A DNA stretch of 64,000 nucleotides from a virus (lineage: Duplodnaviria > Caudoviricetes). Positions within the stretch are counted from its first letter, which is position 1, and the number at the start of each line of letters is the position of its first letter. Under the pieces are notes generated by a model. The model saw nothing but the letters and a program-made list of their open reading frames with translations. It did no database searches and was not told the DNA's origin. Location: positions 60,581-124,580 of IMG/VR virus record IMGVR_UViG_3300028048_000080, one strand, 5' to 3'. The translations under genes were made by a program, and so were the position numbers. Positions 28,532-39,887 of this stretch are shown here, in pieces.

Positions 28532-28558
28532 TTGTTAGTTTTTTAGGAGGCAAAGAAA

Positions 28559-30601
28559 ATGAAAAAGAATCGTTATTTAACCGACGTCAACGCTGTTGTG
28601 GAGATGGCTCGCGCCCATAAGCGCGTAGTCATTTCTAATCAGCAGGATTTTCAGGCGGTTACTCACCGTCTGACATCAAAGGCTGGTAAAATGTTCAGCG
28701 TTATGTCGCTGAATTATAACCAGTCTACCGGTTGGTTCTCGCCGATGGCGGTGAAAGTTCCGGTTTCACTGGAAACGGCGGAGCTGGAAGGTACGGTGCG
28801 CGCCGAAAACGCGCACATCAATAGCATCACTATGATGCCTATTGAACGATTCTCTCGGGCATACATTAATGTATGCTGCGGCGACAATCCGGACCTTTTA
28901 GACTTGCTGTTGCTCGACGGCAAGATTTATTGCGTCCTGAAAGTGGGCGCCAATGGGAAGAACGTGAAAGAATCGTTCTTCGTTCAGAGCGAAAAGGAAG
29001 GCGTTGCTCTGAATATCACCAATGGCAAGGAATGCCCGTTCACCGCCTTCGATAGGGAAGACGTACACGTACATGTGTACGGGCTTCTCGGGGTGTCTTC
29101 TCCCGGCCAGCAGAAACAGGGGGAAATCTCGCTTTATTGCGAGAATCTGGATGGTTTTGATGCCGTAGACCATCTGGACAACATGACTCACGGCATGTAT
29201 CGGCTTATCGCCAAGCATTATGCTGGGCAGCATGATAAGCTGAAAACCCTGGCACAGATTTCGACCCGTATCAGCCAGTTTAAAGCTGGCATGGTTCGGA
29301 CGAAACCTATCCAGGGTATTGCCATCTCTATGTTCAAAGTCAAGGATGTCCTTGACAATGAATGGATGGATGGTCTGCAGCTGTTCTCGGCCGAAGGTGT
29401 TGCCCGCGCTTTCAGCGACGATCAGTTTACGGTACTTCCGAGTGCCGTGGACGGAGCTGCCGCACAAGCTAGACCTCTTATCGTGAACAAAGGTTTGGGT
29501 TTGTGCATGCCGACTCAGTGCATCTTAACCATCTTAAGAGCGCTGGGGTGTGAGTTTGAATTCCTTGCTCAGGATGAACTCACGGATGAACAGTTTAAGA
29601 GCTACCAAAAGGCAGTTCTTAAAAAGTCCGGCGACTACAAGGGCAAAACGCTGGTTATTCTTCCGACTTTCAAGAAGGAAGATGGCAGCATTATGAGCGA
29701 CGAAGAGAAACTCATGCATATCGATGCGTGGGTGGATCTGAACGTACACAAAACTGTGTGCGATATTCGCCGCCCATTCACGGGATTCAATGTCATGGGC
29801 TTTGACCATGGCAAGAAAACCGTGGAGGAGGAAGCCAATACCTCCAATCAGTTATTGGCATCTGCGCTGTACGCTGATACTCCGCGTACTCTTGAGTATA
29901 TGCTCAATTGCACGAAGAAAGAGGCAGACAGCATTATGGCTAATGCCGTCCGCATGGATGGCCGGCGCCTGACAGCTAAAGACCTCTTAGGGGATTTGGC
30001 TATGGCTTCGCAGACAGCTTATCCAGAATTTGCCGTGCGCCATTGGGCGCCGTACTTCCAGGATAATCTGAATAAGGCCCTGGAAGGATTCGGTACGCGT
30101 CTTGAGAAACTGTCAGTTTCCACTGACGGTATCTATCTTAAGATTATTCCGGATCTTAGCCATTTCTTCGGTATCAACCTTCTCCAGTACGATGCCGAAG
30201 AGGGGGTATGCGAAGTGTTAGCACCGCAGCTTTCGAAAGAAGGCAAACGGCGCGCAATCGCTATCAAATACCCGAAGATGGCGACGGACGAATTCGCCAA
30301 GATTATTCCGGTTGCTCCGGAAGACTTGGTAGAACGTGCTCGCTACCATCTGGAGAATGGGGAAATCACCGAGGAACAGTTCGATGTACTGCAGCATCTG
30401 TTCTATATGCTTCATGACGGTATCATCATGGTGCCGGCTATCGAAGAATTGAAGAATATGCTTGCGGGCATGGACTTCGATGGTGATGCGCTTGTTGCTT
30501 ATTGTGATGAGACTTTGGTCGACATCATTTGGGCAATCAAACCCGTGGCAACTACTATTATGAAGGATAAAGACTTCGCCGTCTTTCAAGCTTCAAATTA
30601 A
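28559..30601 (+). CDS. Two-barrel RNA polymerase, cellular-RdRP/YonO-like, catalytic (N-terminal) part
   Basis: AGMDFDGDALVAYCD (DxDGD at 30473-30487). Upstream motifs in RdRP order: SSPGQQK, TRISQF, MDG, AQAR...KG, SNQ, IIPD, KYP. Confidence 0.85.
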   Translation: MKKNRYLTDVNAVVEMARAHKRVVISNQQDFQAVTHRLTSKAGKMFSVMSLNYNQSTGWFSPMAVKVPVSLETAELEGTVRAENAHINSITMMPIERFSRAYINVCCGDNPDLLDLLLLDGKIYCVLKVGANGKNVKESFFVQSEKEGVALNITNGKECPFTAFDREDVHVHVYGLLGVSSPGQQKQGEISLYCENLDGFDAVDHLDNMTHGMYRLIAKHYAGQHDKLKTLAQISTRISQFKAGMVRTKPIQGIAISMFKVKDVLDNEWMDGLQLFSAEGVARAFSDDQFTVLPSAVDGAAAQARPLIVNKGLGLCMPTQCILTILRALGCEFEFLAQDELTDEQFKSYQKAVLKKSGDYKGKTLVILPTFKKEDGSIMSDEEKLMHIDAWVDLNVHKTVCDIRRPFTGFNVMGFDHGKKTVEEEANTSNQLLASALYADTPRTLEYMLNCTKKEADSIMANAVRMDGRRLTAKDLLGDLAMASQTAYPEFAVRHWAPYFQDNLNKALEGFGTRLEKLSVSTDGIYLKIIPDLSHFFGINLLQYDAEEGVCEVLAPQLSKEGKRRAIAIKYPKMATDEFAKIIPVAPEDLVERARYHLENGEITEEQFDVLQHLFYMLHDGIIMVPAIEELKNMLAGMDFDGDALVAYCDETLVDIIWAIKPVATTIMKDKDFAVFQASN

Positions 30602-30669
30602 GTTGTCAATGCCGTATGTACAGAAAGCCCCCGATTATGCGGGGGCTAATTGTTTAGGAGGAGTCTATT

Positions 30670-32856
30670 ATGGAAAAGAAAGTTATCAATGCCCTGAATG
30701 CTATCGTTACCGGCAAAAACTACCCCATCGATGAACGGGTAGTTTGGACGTATTTCTATACGTACCAGAAAAAACAGATTGACCCGGTTGGGATGGTTAC
30801 GAAAGATTTCTGGCCATTTCAAGCCATTATGTACGCTGTTGATATGTACAAGATGGTGCAGAGCTGGGAAGAGTCCCCGGCAAAGACGGCTTGGCTCAAA
30901 GAGTTGAGCATGTCTTTGGACATCGCTTTTAAGTGGCTCAGAAATGAGCTGCTCGTCGGTACGGAATACACTGACAAGAAAAGCAATTACAAAGTATTCC
31001 GCGCACCCATCTCCGAGAAAGAGATGACCGGCGCTCCGAAAGTGAGCGCCATCTGCGTACGCGCTGGCCGCAAGGCCATTAACCGTGCGCGCAAAATGTT
31101 CTTTGCGCCGCTGAGCCAGCAGGAAATGGCTAAGAGCCATGAGCTTAGCGAAGAAGAACTCCTGACCTTGGATAATGTCATGGCATTCTGCAAGGTCATG
31201 GAAAAAGTGGGTCGTATGAGCCAGGAAGGCACTATCGACTCCACCAAGAGCGGTGACGCTCCGAAAATCCTGCAGTACGTCGTCAAGACGGAAGCAGGGA
31301 AGAACGGACTCCGTGAGGTAACCCTTATGGAGGCTCTTAGCCGTGTCAGCTTGCTTAGCCGTAAATCCGAGAAGTTTGGCGTACAGCTGAACTTCGAAGC
31401 AGGCGAAGTCGAGGTTAATCATAATAAACGTATCTCTTATCAGGAGAAGAAACGTTACGTGATTGCCGATATGTTGGATAAAATCCGCATTAACGGCCTC
31501 GACAACGCTATTCCGGCCGATGTATCGGAGAAGGTATTCGCCGTAAAGCAGGCACTCTCCGATGAGCAGATGGCGATCTGCAGCCGTCTTGCTGAACAAG
31601 GTGTATACGCAGACGCTATTCGTGTTCTTATGAACATTTATCGCAACCTGCGTGATACCCAGAAAGCAGATATGCGTCAGGCAATCAAGGATGCCGGCAA
31701 GAATGAGGAAGCTCAGAAAGCCGGTATTGCCGTAGCCAAGGAACAGACCAAGGTAGCGTACAATGCGCTGTCCAATACGGTGCGTTCCCTGGTGAAAGGT
31801 ATGAGCCATGAACAGCTCATTCAGCTCGTACTTGGAGTAACGTTCAAGTATATGGGCAAGGACGCAAAACGTCCGAGCTCTTTCGCCGGGATTATCCTGG
31901 CCGAGGAGTTCTTCGAATACATCATGAGCTTGTATTCGGAAAACGAGGAATTCGCACTTACCCGCGATGAACTCGCTGCGTGCGACGCAGAGGACGGAGA
32001 AGTGGTAGAGTTTGTCGGCGGCGTAGTACCTGGTCGTGCTATCTTCTCTCAGGAGAGAAACGCTATCCCCGATGGCGTGTACACCGTTCGTAAGAATGGC
32101 AAACATGCTTGGGTAGAGGCCAGTGTACGTGATCGTATCGAAGCTCGTTTAAACGATGCTTATAATCCGGAAGAACTCATCTTCCAGACTGGTACGATTG
32201 CCACCGAGAAAGAAGCCGATGCTCTGCTGGATGCTATTAACGGCGCCAACGAGGTAGTTCTCGCTTCTCGGATGCATAATCCGAATGGTGGCAAAGATCT
32301 CTTCGACGTAGTTTTAGCTGACGGCAAAGCTGTCGCTCATTATCAGACCAAGGTGAAGAACATGGTCAAGAACGATAAGGGCGAATTGGTAGCCAACAAG
32401 GTCAACGGCAAAGACGATTATACGATTTCGCAGGCTCTTCGTAAGTTCTACTCCGGTAAAACTGGCGAGGTTGCGTTCGCGCATAAGCTGTCTTTCGGCG
32501 AAGGCAATAAGACTCAGTATGCCGTCATCGTAGTACTGAAAGGTACTAAGCAGATGCGCGCCAATGCTGTAGTTAAAGCTGCCGCCGAAGCCGTTGTTAG
32601 CGCCGATTTCGGAGTAGAGAAGAAAGCTGCTCCTAAAGCGTCCGTTAATAGCCGTCTTGCCGCTCTTAAGGCAAAGGCTGCGGACAGTGAAAAGGAAGAA
32701 GCTCCTGCTCAGCCCGAAGAAGCAGAAGAAGCTCCTCAGCTTACCTTAATGCAGCGCCTGATGGCGAAACGCAACAAGGTAGCCGAGAAGCCCGTTACTG
32801 ATAAGAAGCCCAGCCGACTCGCTCGCCTGCGCAAAGCTGGTGCTGACATTCAGTAA
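30670..32856 (+). CDS. Probable C-terminal part/second subunit of the RdRP/YonO-like RNA polymerase
   Basis: PVGMVT and SQEGTIDSTKSG match the G-x-I-x-N and (A/T)(V/I)D-x-x-K-x-G motifs that follow DxDGD in this family; own AGGAGG RBS. Confidence 0.7.
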   Translation: MEKKVINALNAIVTGKNYPIDERVVWTYFYTYQKKQIDPVGMVTKDFWPFQAIMYAVDMYKMVQSWEESPAKTAWLKELSMSLDIAFKWLRNELLVGTEYTDKKSNYKVFRAPISEKEMTGAPKVSAICVRAGRKAINRARKMFFAPLSQQEMAKSHELSEEELLTLDNVMAFCKVMEKVGRMSQEGTIDSTKSGDAPKILQYVVKTEAGKNGLREVTLMEALSRVSLLSRKSEKFGVQLNFEAGEVEVNHNKRISYQEKKRYVIADMLDKIRINGLDNAIPADVSEKVFAVKQALSDEQMAICSRLAEQGVYADAIRVLMNIYRNLRDTQKADMRQAIKDAGKNEEAQKAGIAVAKEQTKVAYNALSNTVRSLVKGMSHEQLIQLVLGVTFKYMGKDAKRPSSFAGIILAEEFFEYIMSLYSENEEFALTRDELAACDAEDGEVVEFVGGVVPGRAIFSQERNAIPDGVYTVRKNGKHAWVEASVRDRIEARLNDAYNPEELIFQTGTIATEKEADALLDAINGANEVVLASRMHNPNGGKDLFDVVLADGKAVAHYQTKVKNMVKNDKGELVANKVNGKDDYTISQALRKFYSGKTGEVAFAHKLSFGEGNKTQYAVIVVLKGTKQMRANAVVKAAAEAVVSADFGVEKKAAPKASVNSRLAALKAKAADSEKEEAPAQPEEAEEAPQLTLMQRLMAKRNKVAEKPVTDKKPSRLARLRKAGADIQ

Positions 32857-32932: not shown

Positions 32933-33190
32933 ATGCTCAAATTCGATAAAGAAGGTTCACCTATGTGGATCTGGAAATTTCGTCTCTTGATAGACGAAAA
33001 GCCTTATGAAGCGCTCATACATTCTTTTAGCCGAGAAGGAGCGATCAAAAGGCTTAACATAATTGCCCGCAAAGGCGAATTACATGCACATTATATCAGA
33101 GATATTCAAGATGTGCAAGTGGAAGATGATTTATATGACGATACCAATCCGGCGCACAAGGAATATCTTGTACGCTTTTTTGCTTATTGA
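32933..33190 (+). CDS. Hypothetical protein
   Basis: AGGAGGT RBS. Confidence 0.7.
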   Translation: MLKFDKEGSPMWIWKFRLLIDEKPYEALIHSFSREGAIKRLNIIARKGELHAHYIRDIQDVQVEDDLYDDTNPAHKEYLVRFFAY

Positions 33191-33208
33191 GATTAGGAGG
33201 AAAAGAAA

Positions 33209-34600
33209 ATGAAAATAACAGAGTTAGAACTCATCGCCAGTGTGTGCGACGACTATGAATACGATACTATGTCATCCAATGAAGGCATGTGGTGCTTGGA
33301 TGTATATAAATACGACAAGGCGCCGCATGGAACCATTGCGTTTTATTCGGATGATAATATCCGATACGGGCTGACCTTCGACTATACGTTTGACGACGTA
33401 ACAAAGCTCCTGCAAGTTATGCAGGAGATGAAGGAAAAAGATGATTACCATGATGTGCAGTTCCCATTTGATGAACATGGTATCGATTTGGACGACTTTG
33501 AGTGGGTACCCATGCCCGCAAGATGCAAGGGACGGCATATCAATGCTGAAGAAGTCGAAGAAGTGAAGGTTGAAGAGTTGAAGGAAATCGCTATGAAAAC
33601 TATGACTATTGCTAACCAGAATAAAATTGCTGCCGCTATCAACAATGTTACTGCTAAAGCTGAGGAGGAAAAAGCCATGAAGAAGAATAATCGTTACGTT
33701 GTTGCTATGGTAATTGGTTCTGTCGTAAACATGACGCAGATTAACGCCGTTAAAACTTGGCTGACTAAGAACGCTAAAGCCAGCGTGGATATCATCGTTA
33801 GCGGCAATCCCATTCGCGTACAGAAGCTTGGCTGCGTCATTAACGAATTAAAGACTCCTATCCGCATGATTGGTTGCGGCGTAAAGAATAATGACATTTT
33901 TGCTTATACACATCAGGATGAACATCCTTGCGTATGGGCCATTAACCATAGTGACGTAGTGTTCACCATCGGCGATGGTATGGTAGTTACCGAAGCTAAA
34001 AAGTATGCCTTTAAGACCAACCGTAGCTACTATAGCTATGGCCGTCAATTCGTAGAATCCATTTGCAAGGGCCATTACGATAAAGCCGTTATTACGCGCG
34101 CCGATATCGTAACCACCAACGAGGCAAAGGCTATTAAGGCTGAAGAAGTCAAAGTTGTCGCCAAGCCCAAGGTAGACCTCATCGCCGTAGCCAAGGCCGA
34201 GATGGATGCCGCAAAGAAAGTGTATGATGCCGCCAAAGCTAAGTACGACAAGCTGGTAGCTGAATCCAAACCGGTAGCTAAGAAAGAGGTTGTCGGCCGC
34301 GGCAAAGAACTCTTCGTCGACGTTGAGCTCAGCTCCAATATGGGTGATATTACGAAGTCCTTTACGGAAGAGCAGAAGAAAGCCGAAGAAGAAGCGGTTG
34401 ATGAAGTCGTAGAAGCTTTTATGGCTAAAGAAGAATCCATGGCAGAACCTGTTAAAGCCGACTTCACCTTCGAAGGTAAGGGTTACAACGTGATAGTCAA
34501 AGAAGCTTTTGATGTAGAACTCTTTAACAGCTGTGATGCCGAGACTCAGAAGATGGTTATCGAAGAGTCTATGGCAGCGGGCCATATCGTAGCCGCATAA
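33209..34600 (+). CDS. Multi-domain hypothetical protein with possible SLOG-like domain
   Basis: RBS; internal in-frame RBS and ATG at 33677; NHSDVVFTIGDG...AKKYAFK. Confidence 0.65.
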   Translation: MKITELELIASVCDDYEYDTMSSNEGMWCLDVYKYDKAPHGTIAFYSDDNIRYGLTFDYTFDDVTKLLQVMQEMKEKDDYHDVQFPFDEHGIDLDDFEWVPMPARCKGRHINAEEVEEVKVEELKEIAMKTMTIANQNKIAAAINNVTAKAEEEKAMKKNNRYVVAMVIGSVVNMTQINAVKTWLTKNAKASVDIIVSGNPIRVQKLGCVINELKTPIRMIGCGVKNNDIFAYTHQDEHPCVWAINHSDVVFTIGDGMVVTEAKKYAFKTNRSYYSYGRQFVESICKGHYDKAVITRADIVTTNEAKAIKAEEVKVVAKPKVDLIAVAKAEMDAAKKVYDAAKAKYDKLVAESKPVAKKEVVGRGKELFVDVELSSNMGDITKSFTEEQKKAEEEAVDEVVEAFMAKEESMAEPVKADFTFEGKGYNVIVKEAFDVELFNSCDAETQKMVIEESMAAGHIVAA

Positions 34601-35718: not shown

Positions 35719-35980
35719 ATACGCCCGTTGATAGCGGAGGCATTCGTACCTCTTATTGGCAGTATCCATTTAGGAATACCTACGGTGCAAGTTAGTACCG
35801 TTTATTTGGATACTTCTAATCTTACGTCGTACGATAAGCCCTTTGGTAGCGGAGGTGGCTGTTAAGCAGTTACTTTCGCTACCAAACCGTCACTACGCAG
35901 TAGGTACTACCATCCACATCATTGGGTGGTTATAGGTAATACCTACCTTCGTCGTACGGATAAACCCCTTAATAGCGGGG
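35719..35980 (+). promoter_or_regulatory. Three copies of a 21-bp motif ATAMRCCCNTTNRTAGSGGRG (candidate phage-RNAP promoter or RNA repeat)
   Basis: Copies at 35719, 35834 and 35960, each preceded by CGTCGTA; a fourth at 39867. Confidence 0.55.
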
Positions 35981-39766: not shown

Positions 39767-39887
39767 CTAATCAACTCATACTACCTACTTTCACCCATCA
39801 TACCTACTAACTCATCATTTTTCAATTTATCTACTAAACCGTTACTACCTACTTTCCATCCTACCAATAAACCCCTTTATAGGGGGC
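39767..39887 (+). repeat. G-depleted tract 2 ending in the 21-bp motif
   Basis: One G in 39767-39881; ATAAACCCCTTTATAGGGGGC at 39867. Confidence 0.85.

Follow-up and report, generated by a model that had tools for sequence, protein, structure and literature searches.

Two adjacent genes in a cattle-gut phage

The large uncultured cattle-gut phage IMGVR_UViG_3300028048_000080, whose record of 124.6 kb has an estimated completeness of 54% and whose genome is probably jumbo-sized, encodes an RNA polymerase in two adjacent genes. Both are located in the window, the 64,000-nucleotide stretch of this record that was analysed, and are separated by a gap of 68 nt:

28545..28550, plus strand: Shine-Dalgarno sequence AGGAGG of ORF1, 8 nt upstream of the ATG, read from the sequence
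28559..30601, plus strand: ORF1 (680 aa), the catalytic half, composed of an N-terminal domain, DPBB-B, a helical connector and DPBB-A
30626..30647, plus strand: intergenic G+C-rich hairpin of 8 bp, 7 of them G-C pairs, followed by a weak T run
30656..30661, plus strand: Shine-Dalgarno sequence AGGAGG of ORF2, 8 nt upstream of the ATG
30670..32856, plus strand: ORF2 (728 aa), the putative second subunit continuing the polymerase chain, with a candidate bridge helix, an insertion, a candidate trigger loop and a C-terminal region

The paired reading frames, the spacer of 68 bp with its hairpin, the AGGAGG ahead of ORF2 and the series of motifs described below are all present as claimed in the original prediction. 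The gap folds with an energy of -21.8 kcal/mol (z = -2.8), and hairpins with sequences unrelated to that of the window are found at the same place at loci L001 and L003. A TAG located four codons upstream of the ORF2 ATG closes the ORF2 frame.

The genes for the sheath, major head, portal and terminase are carried by the minus strand, and a primase gene by the plus strand; ORF1 and ORF2 belong to the non-structural plus-strand region and are oriented away from the structural cluster that runs from terminase to sheath. Sigma-70-like sites do not exceed the frequency seen in shuffled sequence, and no promoter motif for the ORF1/ORF2 enzyme was established, the candidate 20-mer having just two copies in the window.

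Fold and catalytic residues of ORF1

Along ORF1, the motifs SSPGQQK (residues 180-186), TRISQF (236-241), MDG (270-272), AQARPLIVNKG (302-312), SNQ (429-431), IIPD (529-532), KYP (570-572) and GMDFDGD (637-643) follow one another, and the chain ends 37 residues past D643, close to the predicted distance of about 38 aa. These motifs, and those of ORF2, are on sequence evidence not chance matches. In a family alignment of 60 sequences with 19-87% identity to ORF1, the residues R237, D271, G272, R305, K311, D393, K398, P572, P626, D639, D641 and D643 are invariant, Q303 is kept in 59 sequences, and position 570, a lysine in ORF1 itself, is lysine in 43 and arginine in 17. The aGxDxDxD motif is found in every family member aligned over that region. 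The elements of the pair of double-psi beta-barrels (DPBBs) are the following:

29306..29818, plus strand: DPBB-B, the beta-like barrel, residues ~250-420 (approximate, from the strand pattern of the model and the invariant columns)
29465..29491, plus strand: Q303-A-R305-P-L-I-V-N-K311, product-/NTP-binding basic residues of DPBB-B (compare Q736, R738 and K743 of QDE-1)
30116..30568, plus strand: DPBB-A, the beta-prime-like barrel, residues ~520-670, matching the DPBB of Rpb1, beta-prime and A-prime subunits
30266..30274, plus strand: K570-Y-P572, equivalent of the R-x-P 'Pro-gate' loop, R962-x-P964 in QDE-1 (PMC9508822)
30473..30487, plus strand: D639-F-D641-G-D643, the metal-binding aspartate triad, with all three Asp in 60 of 60 sequences

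DPBB-B, which holds D271, Q303, R305, K311, D393 and K398, is interrupted by an insertion at residues ~320-390. Eight residues are invariant across two-barrel polymerases, in QDE-1 D709, R738, K743, R962, P964, D1007, D1009 and D1011 (PMC2919709). Their equivalents in ORF1, assigned by motif order and spacing together with global structural alignment and not by residue-level superposition, are D271, R305, K311, K/R570, P572, D639, D641 and D643, and all eight are kept in the 60 sequences. The spacing of the D..Q-x-R..K series also matches that of D709/Q736/R738/K743 in QDE-1 (PMC9508822).

The AF2 model of ORF1, obtained with the 60-sequence alignment as input, has a pLDDT of 92.8 and a pTM of 0.89. 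Its best solved match by VIA-align is QDE-1 (7y7p_A; Z 19.6, rmsd 4.0, 437 aligned residues), with model residues 41-670 aligning to QDE-1 residues 488-1036, which span both QDE-1 barrels. Maize RDR2 (Z 13.7), P74-26 gp62 (Z 11.7), P23-45 gp96 (Z 10.8) and phi14:2 gp66 (Z 9.1, over 446 residues) are also matched; the largest-subunit DPBB of cellular and viral multisubunit RNAPs aligns with model residues 518-669 only (Z 7.2-9.0). Foldseek likewise returned QDE-1 (E 3.7e-11), RDR2 (E 1.4e-8) and gp66 (E 2e-4), and in sequence both RDR2 (E 0.1) and QDE-1 (E 0.7) show weak collinear similarity at the SASQ / RxxQ / DG and DxDGD motifs. The alignment of the model with both QDE-1 barrels places ORF1 in the two-barrel superfamily, whose two DPBB domains face one active site. 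By its predicted structure, ORF1 has the two double-psi beta-barrels of a QDE-1/RDR-type polymerase together with its catalytic DxDxD.

The fold search also bears on whether the two genes are pieces of a diverged multisubunit phage RNAP of the phiKZ/AR9 kind, in which ORF1 would be the N-terminal and ORF2 the C-terminal half of beta-prime, with beta-like genes elsewhere in the genome. The probable jumbo size of the genome, the presence of relatives on contigs of 196-260 kb, the use of DFDGD as a beta-prime motif too, and a break just after DPBB-A that recalls the split beta-prime of jumbo phages would all suit such an origin. However, the barrels are not on separate polypeptides, as both are found in ORF1, where the beta-like barrel also has its Asp and basic residues, and the nvRNAP chains of phiKZ and AR9 match DPBB-A alone (Z 7.6 and 6.8), against the Z of 19.6 over 437 residues for QDE-1. 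This origin is contradicted by the fold search and is extremely improbable.

ORF2 and the division of the chain

ORF2 contains the motifs PVGMVT (residues 39-44) and TIDSTKSG (188-195), in which V40, G41, V43, T188, D190 and K193 are invariant among 11 ORF2 homologues and T44 and I189 nearly so. Three regions of the protein can be delineated:

30787..30855, plus strand: candidate bridge helix, ORF2 residues 40-62, including the invariant V40, G41 and V43
31234..31248, plus strand: I189-D190-S-T-K193, candidate NTP contacts of the trigger loop, with the V/I-D-x-x-K pattern
32587..32853, plus strand: Ala/Lys/Glu-rich C-terminal tail, residues ~640-728, poorly conserved, with few conserved columns

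Profiles of ORF2 found no match in the PDB, Pfam, PHROGs or the ESM Atlas. Two fused homologues, P0055 (E 2.5e-12) and P0052 (E 2.1e-9), resemble ORF2 in the region that follows their ORF1-like part; about 45 fused single-chain homologues with an ORF2-like region after the ORF1-like region are detected by hmmsearch; and distant split homologues of ORF1 are followed by a gene homologous to ORF2 (hhalign E 3e-29, 7e-13 and 9e-17). The sequences show ORF2 to be a homologue of the fused enzymes' distal half and a continuation of the same enzyme. Together with the two barrels of ORF1, this bears out the split QDE-1/RDR-type polymerase originally proposed.

The bridge helix and the trigger loop are probably carried by ORF2, an assignment that is based on motifs, collinearity and a model of the complex; neither the ORF2 profiles nor an hhalign comparison of YonO with ORF2 gives a match. 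The candidate bridge helix starts ~76 residues past DxDxD, compared to ~71 in QDE-1, and the V/I-D-x-x-K pattern recurs in QDE-1 (V1115/D1116/K1119) and in YonO (T-I-D-F-A-K). In the complex model, the VG-VT helix 40-62 and I-D-x-x-K 189-193 are placed at the active-site face of ORF1; residues 39-62 of ORF2 make contacts mostly every 3-4 residues, and the contacted positions of ORF1 include 572-578 and 628-634. The model scores 0.86, against 0.00 for the best of three controls. Of 80 solved complexes 58 attain such a mark, as do 2 of 110 mismatched pairs (counts that hold only roughly, because own alignments were used), and the halves of a split gene can pass because they resemble solved single-chain structures, for instance QDE-1. 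At least 77% of contacts are common to the runs, and the partner pLDDT is at least 79. The model supports the expected binding of the ORF1 and ORF2 proteins to each other but does not show it.

The ORF1 family, which is large, unnamed and so far metagenome-only, consists of 251 sequence clusters, and four tblastn searches gave no match in 50,697 deposited phage genomes. The chain stops shortly past DxDxD, like ORF1, in 53 of its 90 near-full-length representatives, and 31 are fused chains of 1,200-1,500 aa, the second half of which matches ORF2. The split point is conserved, and rather than being peculiar to this phage, the split is the commoner state of its family.

Alternatively, a recent mutation, or an error in sequencing or assembly, could have broken a single gene, or the halves could be rejoined by frameshifting, readthrough or protein splicing, and the functional product would be one chain. 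The fused homologues are compatible with this, as is locus L003, where the halves share one frame and are separated by one TAA and 20 sense codons. Against it, the break falls at the same place in the 53 representatives, relatives at ~55% identity are also split (696+737 aa and 707+701 aa), and so are the distant loci L005-L007, where each ORF2 has its own start. In the window, a strong ribosome-binding site and the TAG that closes the frame precede ORF2, and the frame offset between the halves varies across loci (2, 1, 0, 2, 1, 2). Contigs from three other studies span the ORF1/ORF2 junction with no indel, and the split is therefore natural, as the original prediction had argued. In fused forms just ~20 residues separate the ORF1-like and ORF2-like homology blocks, too few to accommodate an intein. 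A broken or rejoined gene is thus very unlikely.

The long extension of ORF2, originally suggested as a possible source of promoter specificity, is also found in fused members (aligned to ORF2 position ~600-675); it is therefore not a specificity module peculiar to split forms, and nothing points to its having been acquired as such on account of the split.

A probable two-subunit polymerase and its relatives

ORF1 and ORF2 are very probably the two subunits of one phage two-barrel RNA polymerase of the single-chain QDE-1/RDR/YonO class, naturally divided right after the second barrel, with a composite active site and most likely acting as a non-virion DNA-dependent transcriptase. ORF1 would supply the whole metal- and phosphate-binding centre, with D271, Q303, R305 and K311 from the beta-like barrel and K570-Y-P572 and D639/D641/D643 from the beta-prime-like barrel. 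ORF2, translated from its own ribosome-binding site, would dock on ORF1 and contribute two elements in trans, the bridge helix (~40-62) and the trigger loop (I189-D190-x-x-K193), which would position the template and the incoming NTP; it would also add its C-terminal region to the enzyme. By analogy with YonO and P23-45 gp64, the most likely role of the heterodimer would be that of a non-virion, DNA-dependent, rifampicin-insensitive transcriptase of later phage genes.

It does not follow from the fold that the template is DNA, because the closest solved relatives also, or mainly, copy RNA, and no sequence feature examined discriminates between DNA and RNA templates. The same heterodimer might mainly use RNA templates, like QDE-1/RDR2, for example to make double-stranded or antisense RNA in infection, and not transcribe phage DNA. 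This would agree with the closest solved structures being RNAi polymerases and with the retention of Q303-x-R305 in the family, where YonO has M-V-R; Q736/R738 of QDE-1 are typical of RNAi-related RdRPs, compared to a Lys in Pol II (PMC9508822). However, QDE-1 is a DNA-dependent enzyme as well (PMC9508822), YonO, phi14:2 gp66 and P23-45 gp64, the phage members that have been characterised, are reported to transcribe DNA, and a dsDNA phage more obviously needs a transcriptase than an RdRP, and a mainly RNA-copying enzyme appears improbable.

A further-reaching reading, speculative and rather unlikely, is that among viruses of prokaryotes it is this metagenome-only family, and not YonO or the crAss enzymes, that stands nearest to the eukaryotic RNAi polymerases, and that two subunits can make up a working minimal two-barrel polymerase, with the bridge helix and trigger loop in trans. 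The kinship draws on the common Q-x-R product-binding signature, the V/I-D-x-x-K trigger loop and QDE-1 as the best solved match. If true, splitting and fusion would have recurred at least ~7-9 times, and the catalytic and NTP-loading halves could be separately regulated or exchanged.

The eukaryotic RNAi polymerases QDE-1 and RDR2 (PF05183) give the best structural match, which extends across both barrels and the connector, with the same order of elements. The QDE-1 equivalents are D709, Q736, R738, K743, R962-x-P964 and D1007/1009/1011 for ORF1 and, probably, V1115/D1116/K1119 for ORF2. Sequence identity is 11-13%; neither ORF1 nor ORF2 matches PF05183 at E up to 1, and the distant family members P0104 (19.6 bits) and P0040 (12.3 bits) score under its gathering threshold of 23.8 bits. 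While eukaryotic-type RdRPs carry the barrels, bridge helix and trigger loop on a single polypeptide, ORF1 and ORF2 are two phage-encoded polypeptides from genes with separate starts. They also differ from QDE-1 in the DPBB-B insertion (~320-390), in the stretch of ORF2 from the candidate bridge helix to the candidate trigger loop, which has ~115 extra residues, and in the region past the trigger loop, where ORF2 is ~270 residues longer.

YonO of Bacillus phage SPbeta is likewise a phage-encoded, non-virion two-barrel RNAP of the single-chain class and shares the motif series SSAGQ / DG / R-x-P..K-G / R-x-P / DxDGD / T-I-D-x-x-K, but it is one chain of 839 aa, compared to 1,408 aa in two chains, and lacks the Gln of Q-x-R. 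By hhalign, YonO 342-554 is marginally similar to ORF1 418-658 (probability 58%, E 1e-4, 206 columns including DxDGD, in the DPBB-A region only), and BLASTP of YonO against the DNDGD-bearing family member P0074 is not significant. Of the kinship originally proposed, that to QDE-1/RDR is strong and that to YonO weak.

The virion RNAPs phi14:2 gp66 (crAss-like) and P23-45 gp96 (Thermus phage), which are parts of giant virion proteins, and the non-virion P23-45 gp64 / P74-26 gp62, compact chains of ~590 aa, belong to the same two-barrel single-chain class; gp66, gp96 and gp62 are structurally more distant from ORF1 than QDE-1. In the solved enzymes, both barrels, the bridge helix and, where described, the trigger loop are on one chain. 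The split beta-prime of the jumbo-phage multisubunit RNAPs (phiKZ, AR9) resembles the present case in a chain break downstream of the DxDxD barrel, which yields an N-terminal piece with the Asp triad. The bridge helix and trigger loop of jumbo-phage beta-prime are on the C-terminal piece, and a similar gamma/beta-prime split exists in cyanobacterial RNAP. In phiKZ and AR9, however, one barrel is on beta and the other on beta-prime, and the enzyme requires additional subunits, whereas here both barrels are on ORF1.

Two adjacent genes and their surroundings

The virus record to which the window belongs is 124,580 bp long and has a completeness estimate of 54%. The tail sheath, major head protein, portal and large terminase are encoded on the minus strand in the first 26 kb of the window, and non-structural genes, a primase among them, are found on the plus strand beyond about 27 kb. 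ORF1 and ORF2, the two proposed halves of the polymerase, are the earliest large genes in this plus-strand block, each with an AGGAGG 8 nt ahead of it:

28559-30601, plus strand: ORF1, 680 aa
30626-30647: 8-bp G+C-rich hairpin within the 68-nt gap between the genes
30670-32856, plus strand: ORF2, 728 aa

The motifs on which the original prediction of a split two-barrel RNA polymerase was built are all present, in the order and at the places quoted. The hairpin is followed by a T-rich stretch, an arrangement that recurs between the polymerase genes of two relatives (L001:8102-8126 and L003:7169-7193), loci with only about 55% protein identity and with hairpins of mutually unrelated sequence, and that L006 and L007, which are more distant, do not have. 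One possible role is to set the ratio of the two subunits, by attenuation or by stabilising the RNA. Downstream of ORF2, the window (32933-34600) and its ~55%-identity relatives (L001:10441-12183; L003:9478-11868) share two genes, one small (70-85 aa) and one large (463-720 aa), a pair not seen in the distant loci L005-L007. Neither the window's conserved pair (85 and 463 aa) nor the neighbouring small genes match Pfam or PHROGs, and these searches gave no evidence for any of them as extra subunits. An IS-type transposase pair (HTH_Tnp_1, rve; L007:3454-4709) lies immediately upstream of the ORF1 homologue of L007. Upstream of the window itself is a 2960-aa ORF (L009:148-9030, minus strand; ~43447-52329 of C1, the genome containing L009), in which profile comparison by hhalign detects no likeness to the ORF1 family (E 0.22).

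Fold and catalytic residues of ORF1

As single sequences, ORF1 and ORF2 have no match in Pfam, PHROGs or PDB sequences. An AF2 model of ORF1 from 13 close sequences only reached a pLDDT of 43.5, and the diverse homologues of the profile search were needed for a confident model, which was obtained from a 60-sequence alignment (A3) with a pLDDT of 92.8 and a pTM of 0.89. This model was compared with PDB structures by Foldseek and with 48,161 chains by VIA-align.

Structural matches of the ORF1 model
QDE-1: Foldseek E 3.7e-11; VIA-align Z 19.6, rmsd 4.0, 437 residues, model 41-670 on chain 488-1036
RDR2: Foldseek E 1.4e-8 (Arabidopsis) and 4.9e-8 (maize); VIA-align Z 13.7
Crass-like phi14:2 gp66: Foldseek E 2e-4; VIA-align Z 9.1
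P23-45-type gp64/gp62: Foldseek E 5e-3 and 1e-2
P74-26 gp62: VIA-align Z 11.7
P23-45 gp96: VIA-align Z 10.8
Largest subunits of cellular, ASFV, vaccinia, phiKZ and AR9 RNAPs: VIA-align Z 6.8-9.0, model 518-669 only

Because of these matches, ORF1 is placed as the bearer of both barrels of a QDE-1-like enzyme, as had been proposed. Split large subunits are familiar among multisubunit RNAPs, and a fragment of a beta-prime subunit was considered as an identity for ORF1; it was rejected, since ORF1 holds both barrels and, in the model, beta-prime likeness is limited to the second. BFVD returned proteins of uncultured gut phages, two already labelled "RNA-dependent RNA polymerase", together with the 1218-aa protein A7KVB1, crAss-like phage proteins and P23-45 gp64.

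Eight residues are invariant in all two-barrel polymerases, in QDE-1 D709, R738, K743, R962, P964 and D1007/1009/1011 (PMC2919709), and to these a study of QDE-1 adds Q736, the D1AH helix and the bridge helix L1082-R1091 (PMC9508822). In alignment A3, D271, R305, K311, P572, D639, D641 and D643 of ORF1 are kept in 60/60 sequences and Q303 in 59/60, and position 570 is K in 43/60 and R in 17/60. Order and spacing are similar in ORF1 and QDE-1: the Q-x-R is identical, D and Q are 32 residues apart compared with 27, and R and K 6 compared with 5. We infer the equivalence of these residues from motif order and the global structural alignment. At the profile level, the family aligns weakly and collinearly with RDR2 on the SASQ, RxxQ and DG motifs (E ~0.1) and with QDE-1 on DxDGD (E ~0.7).

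Split and fused forms across the family

No match was found by tblastn with ORF1 and the diverse family members P0061, P0091 and P0046 against 50,697 deposited phage genomes, nor by a scan of IMG/VR with the close alignment. Word-indexed searches returned 14 relatives of ORF1 and 10 of ORF2, all of matching size and some of them encoded on 254-260 kb contigs. A search of 1.84 billion cluster representatives with a profile built from 13 ORF1 relatives then found 251 proteins at E <= 1e-3 (58 at E <= 1e-30), so that the ORF1 family comprises at least 251 clusters at 50% identity; it is without any Pfam or PHROG model. The motif aGxDxDxD is kept by all members aligning over it, and two size classes are found: ORF1-like proteins of ~640-760 aa, which end 30-70 residues past the motif, and proteins of 1,100-1,500 aa, which run 550-850 residues beyond it. 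By profile comparison, the long members are ORF1-ORF2 fusions. In P0055 (1427 aa), residues 228-730 match ORF1 and 750-1207 match the ORF2 family (hhalign 97.7%, E 2.5e-12), P0052 shows the same order (E 2.1e-9), and an ORF2 HMM found ~45 fused proteins.

One continuous ORF therefore exists among homologues, yet the split state prevails: among 90 near-full-length representatives placed on a quick maximum-likelihood tree, 31 are fused, 53 are split and 6 are intermediate. ORF1 is placed in a well-supported clade of 10, all split; split members dominate one half of the tree (47/55) and fused members the other (27/35). The tree requires at least 9 state changes, with 7-9 forced by well-supported branches, counts that are approximate since some metagenomic "split" calls could be errors. 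The split point, which the original prediction proposed to check in homologous phages, is conserved. The ~55%-identity relatives are split (696+737 aa, gap 70 nt; 707+701 aa, gap 60 nt), and distant split homologues of ORF1, at 25-30% identity, are each followed by a homologue of ORF2: in L005 (E 3e-29), L006 (7e-13) and L007 (9e-17).

In the window, the natural origin of the two genes is upheld by ORF2's own AGGAGG and by contigs of three other studies (X3 record 11; X2 records 6 and 7; X8 record 28), which span 30601-30670 without indels. The metagenome runs X3 and X8 come from bovine gut, as does the run with nearly all of the stretch; no RNA run was among those listed. Fusion by frameshifting or readthrough was rejected: a TAG shuts ORF2's frame four codons before its ATG, and the two halves are offset in frame by 2, 1, 0, 2, 1 and 2 at six loci, a variation that argues against a conserved recoding device. 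A split intein was likewise rejected, because only ~20 residues separate the homology blocks in fused forms. In this large, uncharacterised family the split is both common and conserved, and it is not peculiar to the window's phage.

Several loci depart from the simple arrangement. In L005 (2099-2643) the halves lie 545 nt apart with a 58-aa ORF (2307-2483) in between, which may be left over from an insertion that created the split or made it wider. In L003 (7155-7220) they share one frame and are parted by a single TAA and 20 sense codons, which may be chance, given the other offsets elsewhere. P0045 joins an ORF1-like part to the bridge-helix segment and P0080 to the bridge-helix and trigger-loop segments, and P0087 and P0094 start at the second barrel and continue through the ORF2-like part; in these four the gene may be naturally split at another point, or the gene call may be truncated. 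In the distant fused member P0154 (1858 aa), the polymerase region, with DLDGD at 1476, is preceded by a MYG1-type exonuclease domain (PF03690, E 5e-31, residues 452-727).

ORF2, the paired enzyme and its relatives

That ORF2 continues the enzyme is upheld by the fused homologues, but not by direct comparison: its profile gave only chance-level matches to PDB sequences, its profiles did not match YonO, and the ESM Atlas held no usable match. A further protein search from the ORF2 alignment added one fragment only. The long ORF2 extension noted in the original prediction is present; it is not confined to the split version, as it occurs in fused forms too. Across 11 homologues, down to 21% identity, ORF2 residues V40, G41, V43, T188, D190 and K193 are invariant. 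The trigger loop of QDE-1 spans 1102-1136 and includes V1115, D1116 and K1119 (PMC9508822); the I-D-x-x-K of ORF2 resembles its V-D-x-x-K, as well as the T-I-D-F-A-K of YonO. The VG-VT helix starts ~76 residues after DxDxD, counted via the ORF1 tail, compared with ~71 in QDE-1, and the stretch between VG-VT and I-D-x-x-K is ~115 residues longer in ORF2. The bridge helix and trigger loop probably lie on ORF2.

A complex model of ORF1 41-680 with ORF2 1-360 scored 0.86, against 0.00 for the best of three controls, in line with the interface that had been expected. In a benchmark, 0.86 was reached by 58/80 solved complexes and 2/110 mismatched pairs, counts that apply only roughly to the present pair, whose alignments were built separately for this analysis. 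Contact agreement between runs was at least 77% and partner pLDDT at least 79. The modelled contacts include those joining ORF2 16-34 to ORF1 180, 190, 192 and 231-235, and ORF2 124-129 to ORF1 664-668; the interface also lists ORF2 39-62 and 178-195, and ORF1 572-578 and 628-634. The model supports binding of the two proteins but does not show it, since the pass may mirror the likeness of these split-gene halves to solved single-chain enzymes.

The position of the genes outside the structural module makes a non-virion enzyme likely. Given its identity as a polymerase, a heterodimeric DNA-dependent transcriptase for later phage genes seems a fairly probable role, favoured by this position and by the literature, in which the characterised phage members of the two-barrel single-chain class transcribe DNA. 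RNA-templated synthesis by the ORF1-ORF2 enzyme is the main alternative. Two near-identical 20-mers (ATAAACCCCTT-W-ATAG-S-GGG) lie ahead of plus-strand genes (35960-35979 and 39867-39886, plus strand). The window holds no more copies at <= 3 mismatches, two being too few for a promoter class, and sigma-70-like sites are no commoner in it than in shuffles; neither count establishes a promoter for the enzyme.

Single-chain two-barrel RNAPs (YonO, crAss gp66, P23-45 gp64/gp96 and QDE-1) serve as minimal models of the universal transcription machine and are also investigated as possible ancestors of eukaryotic RNAi polymerases. In most members of the present family, a catalytic two-barrel subunit is accompanied by a subunit probably bearing the bridge helix and trigger loop. 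The family is thus a natural experiment on which active-centre parts need covalent linkage, yields split and fused pairs for biochemistry, and contributes new data to the question of a phage origin for RNAi polymerases. Its novelty is limited by gut-virome proteins of the ORF1 fold that UniProt already names "RNA-dependent RNA polymerase": the class is known, and what is new is the family and its two-subunit architecture.

Of the QDE-1/YonO-type assignment, the QDE-1/RDR likeness stands, and the YonO part holds at most distantly, and for ORF1 only. In hhalign, YonO 342-554 aligns with ORF1 418-658 (probability 58%, E 1e-4), placing R-S-P on K-Y-P and DNDGD on DFDGD, which suggests a distant relative belonging to a different family. 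The enzyme is more QDE-1/RDR-like than YonO-like, and QDE-1 is the solved-structure neighbour of ORF1, with a Z score above that of every phage enzyme.
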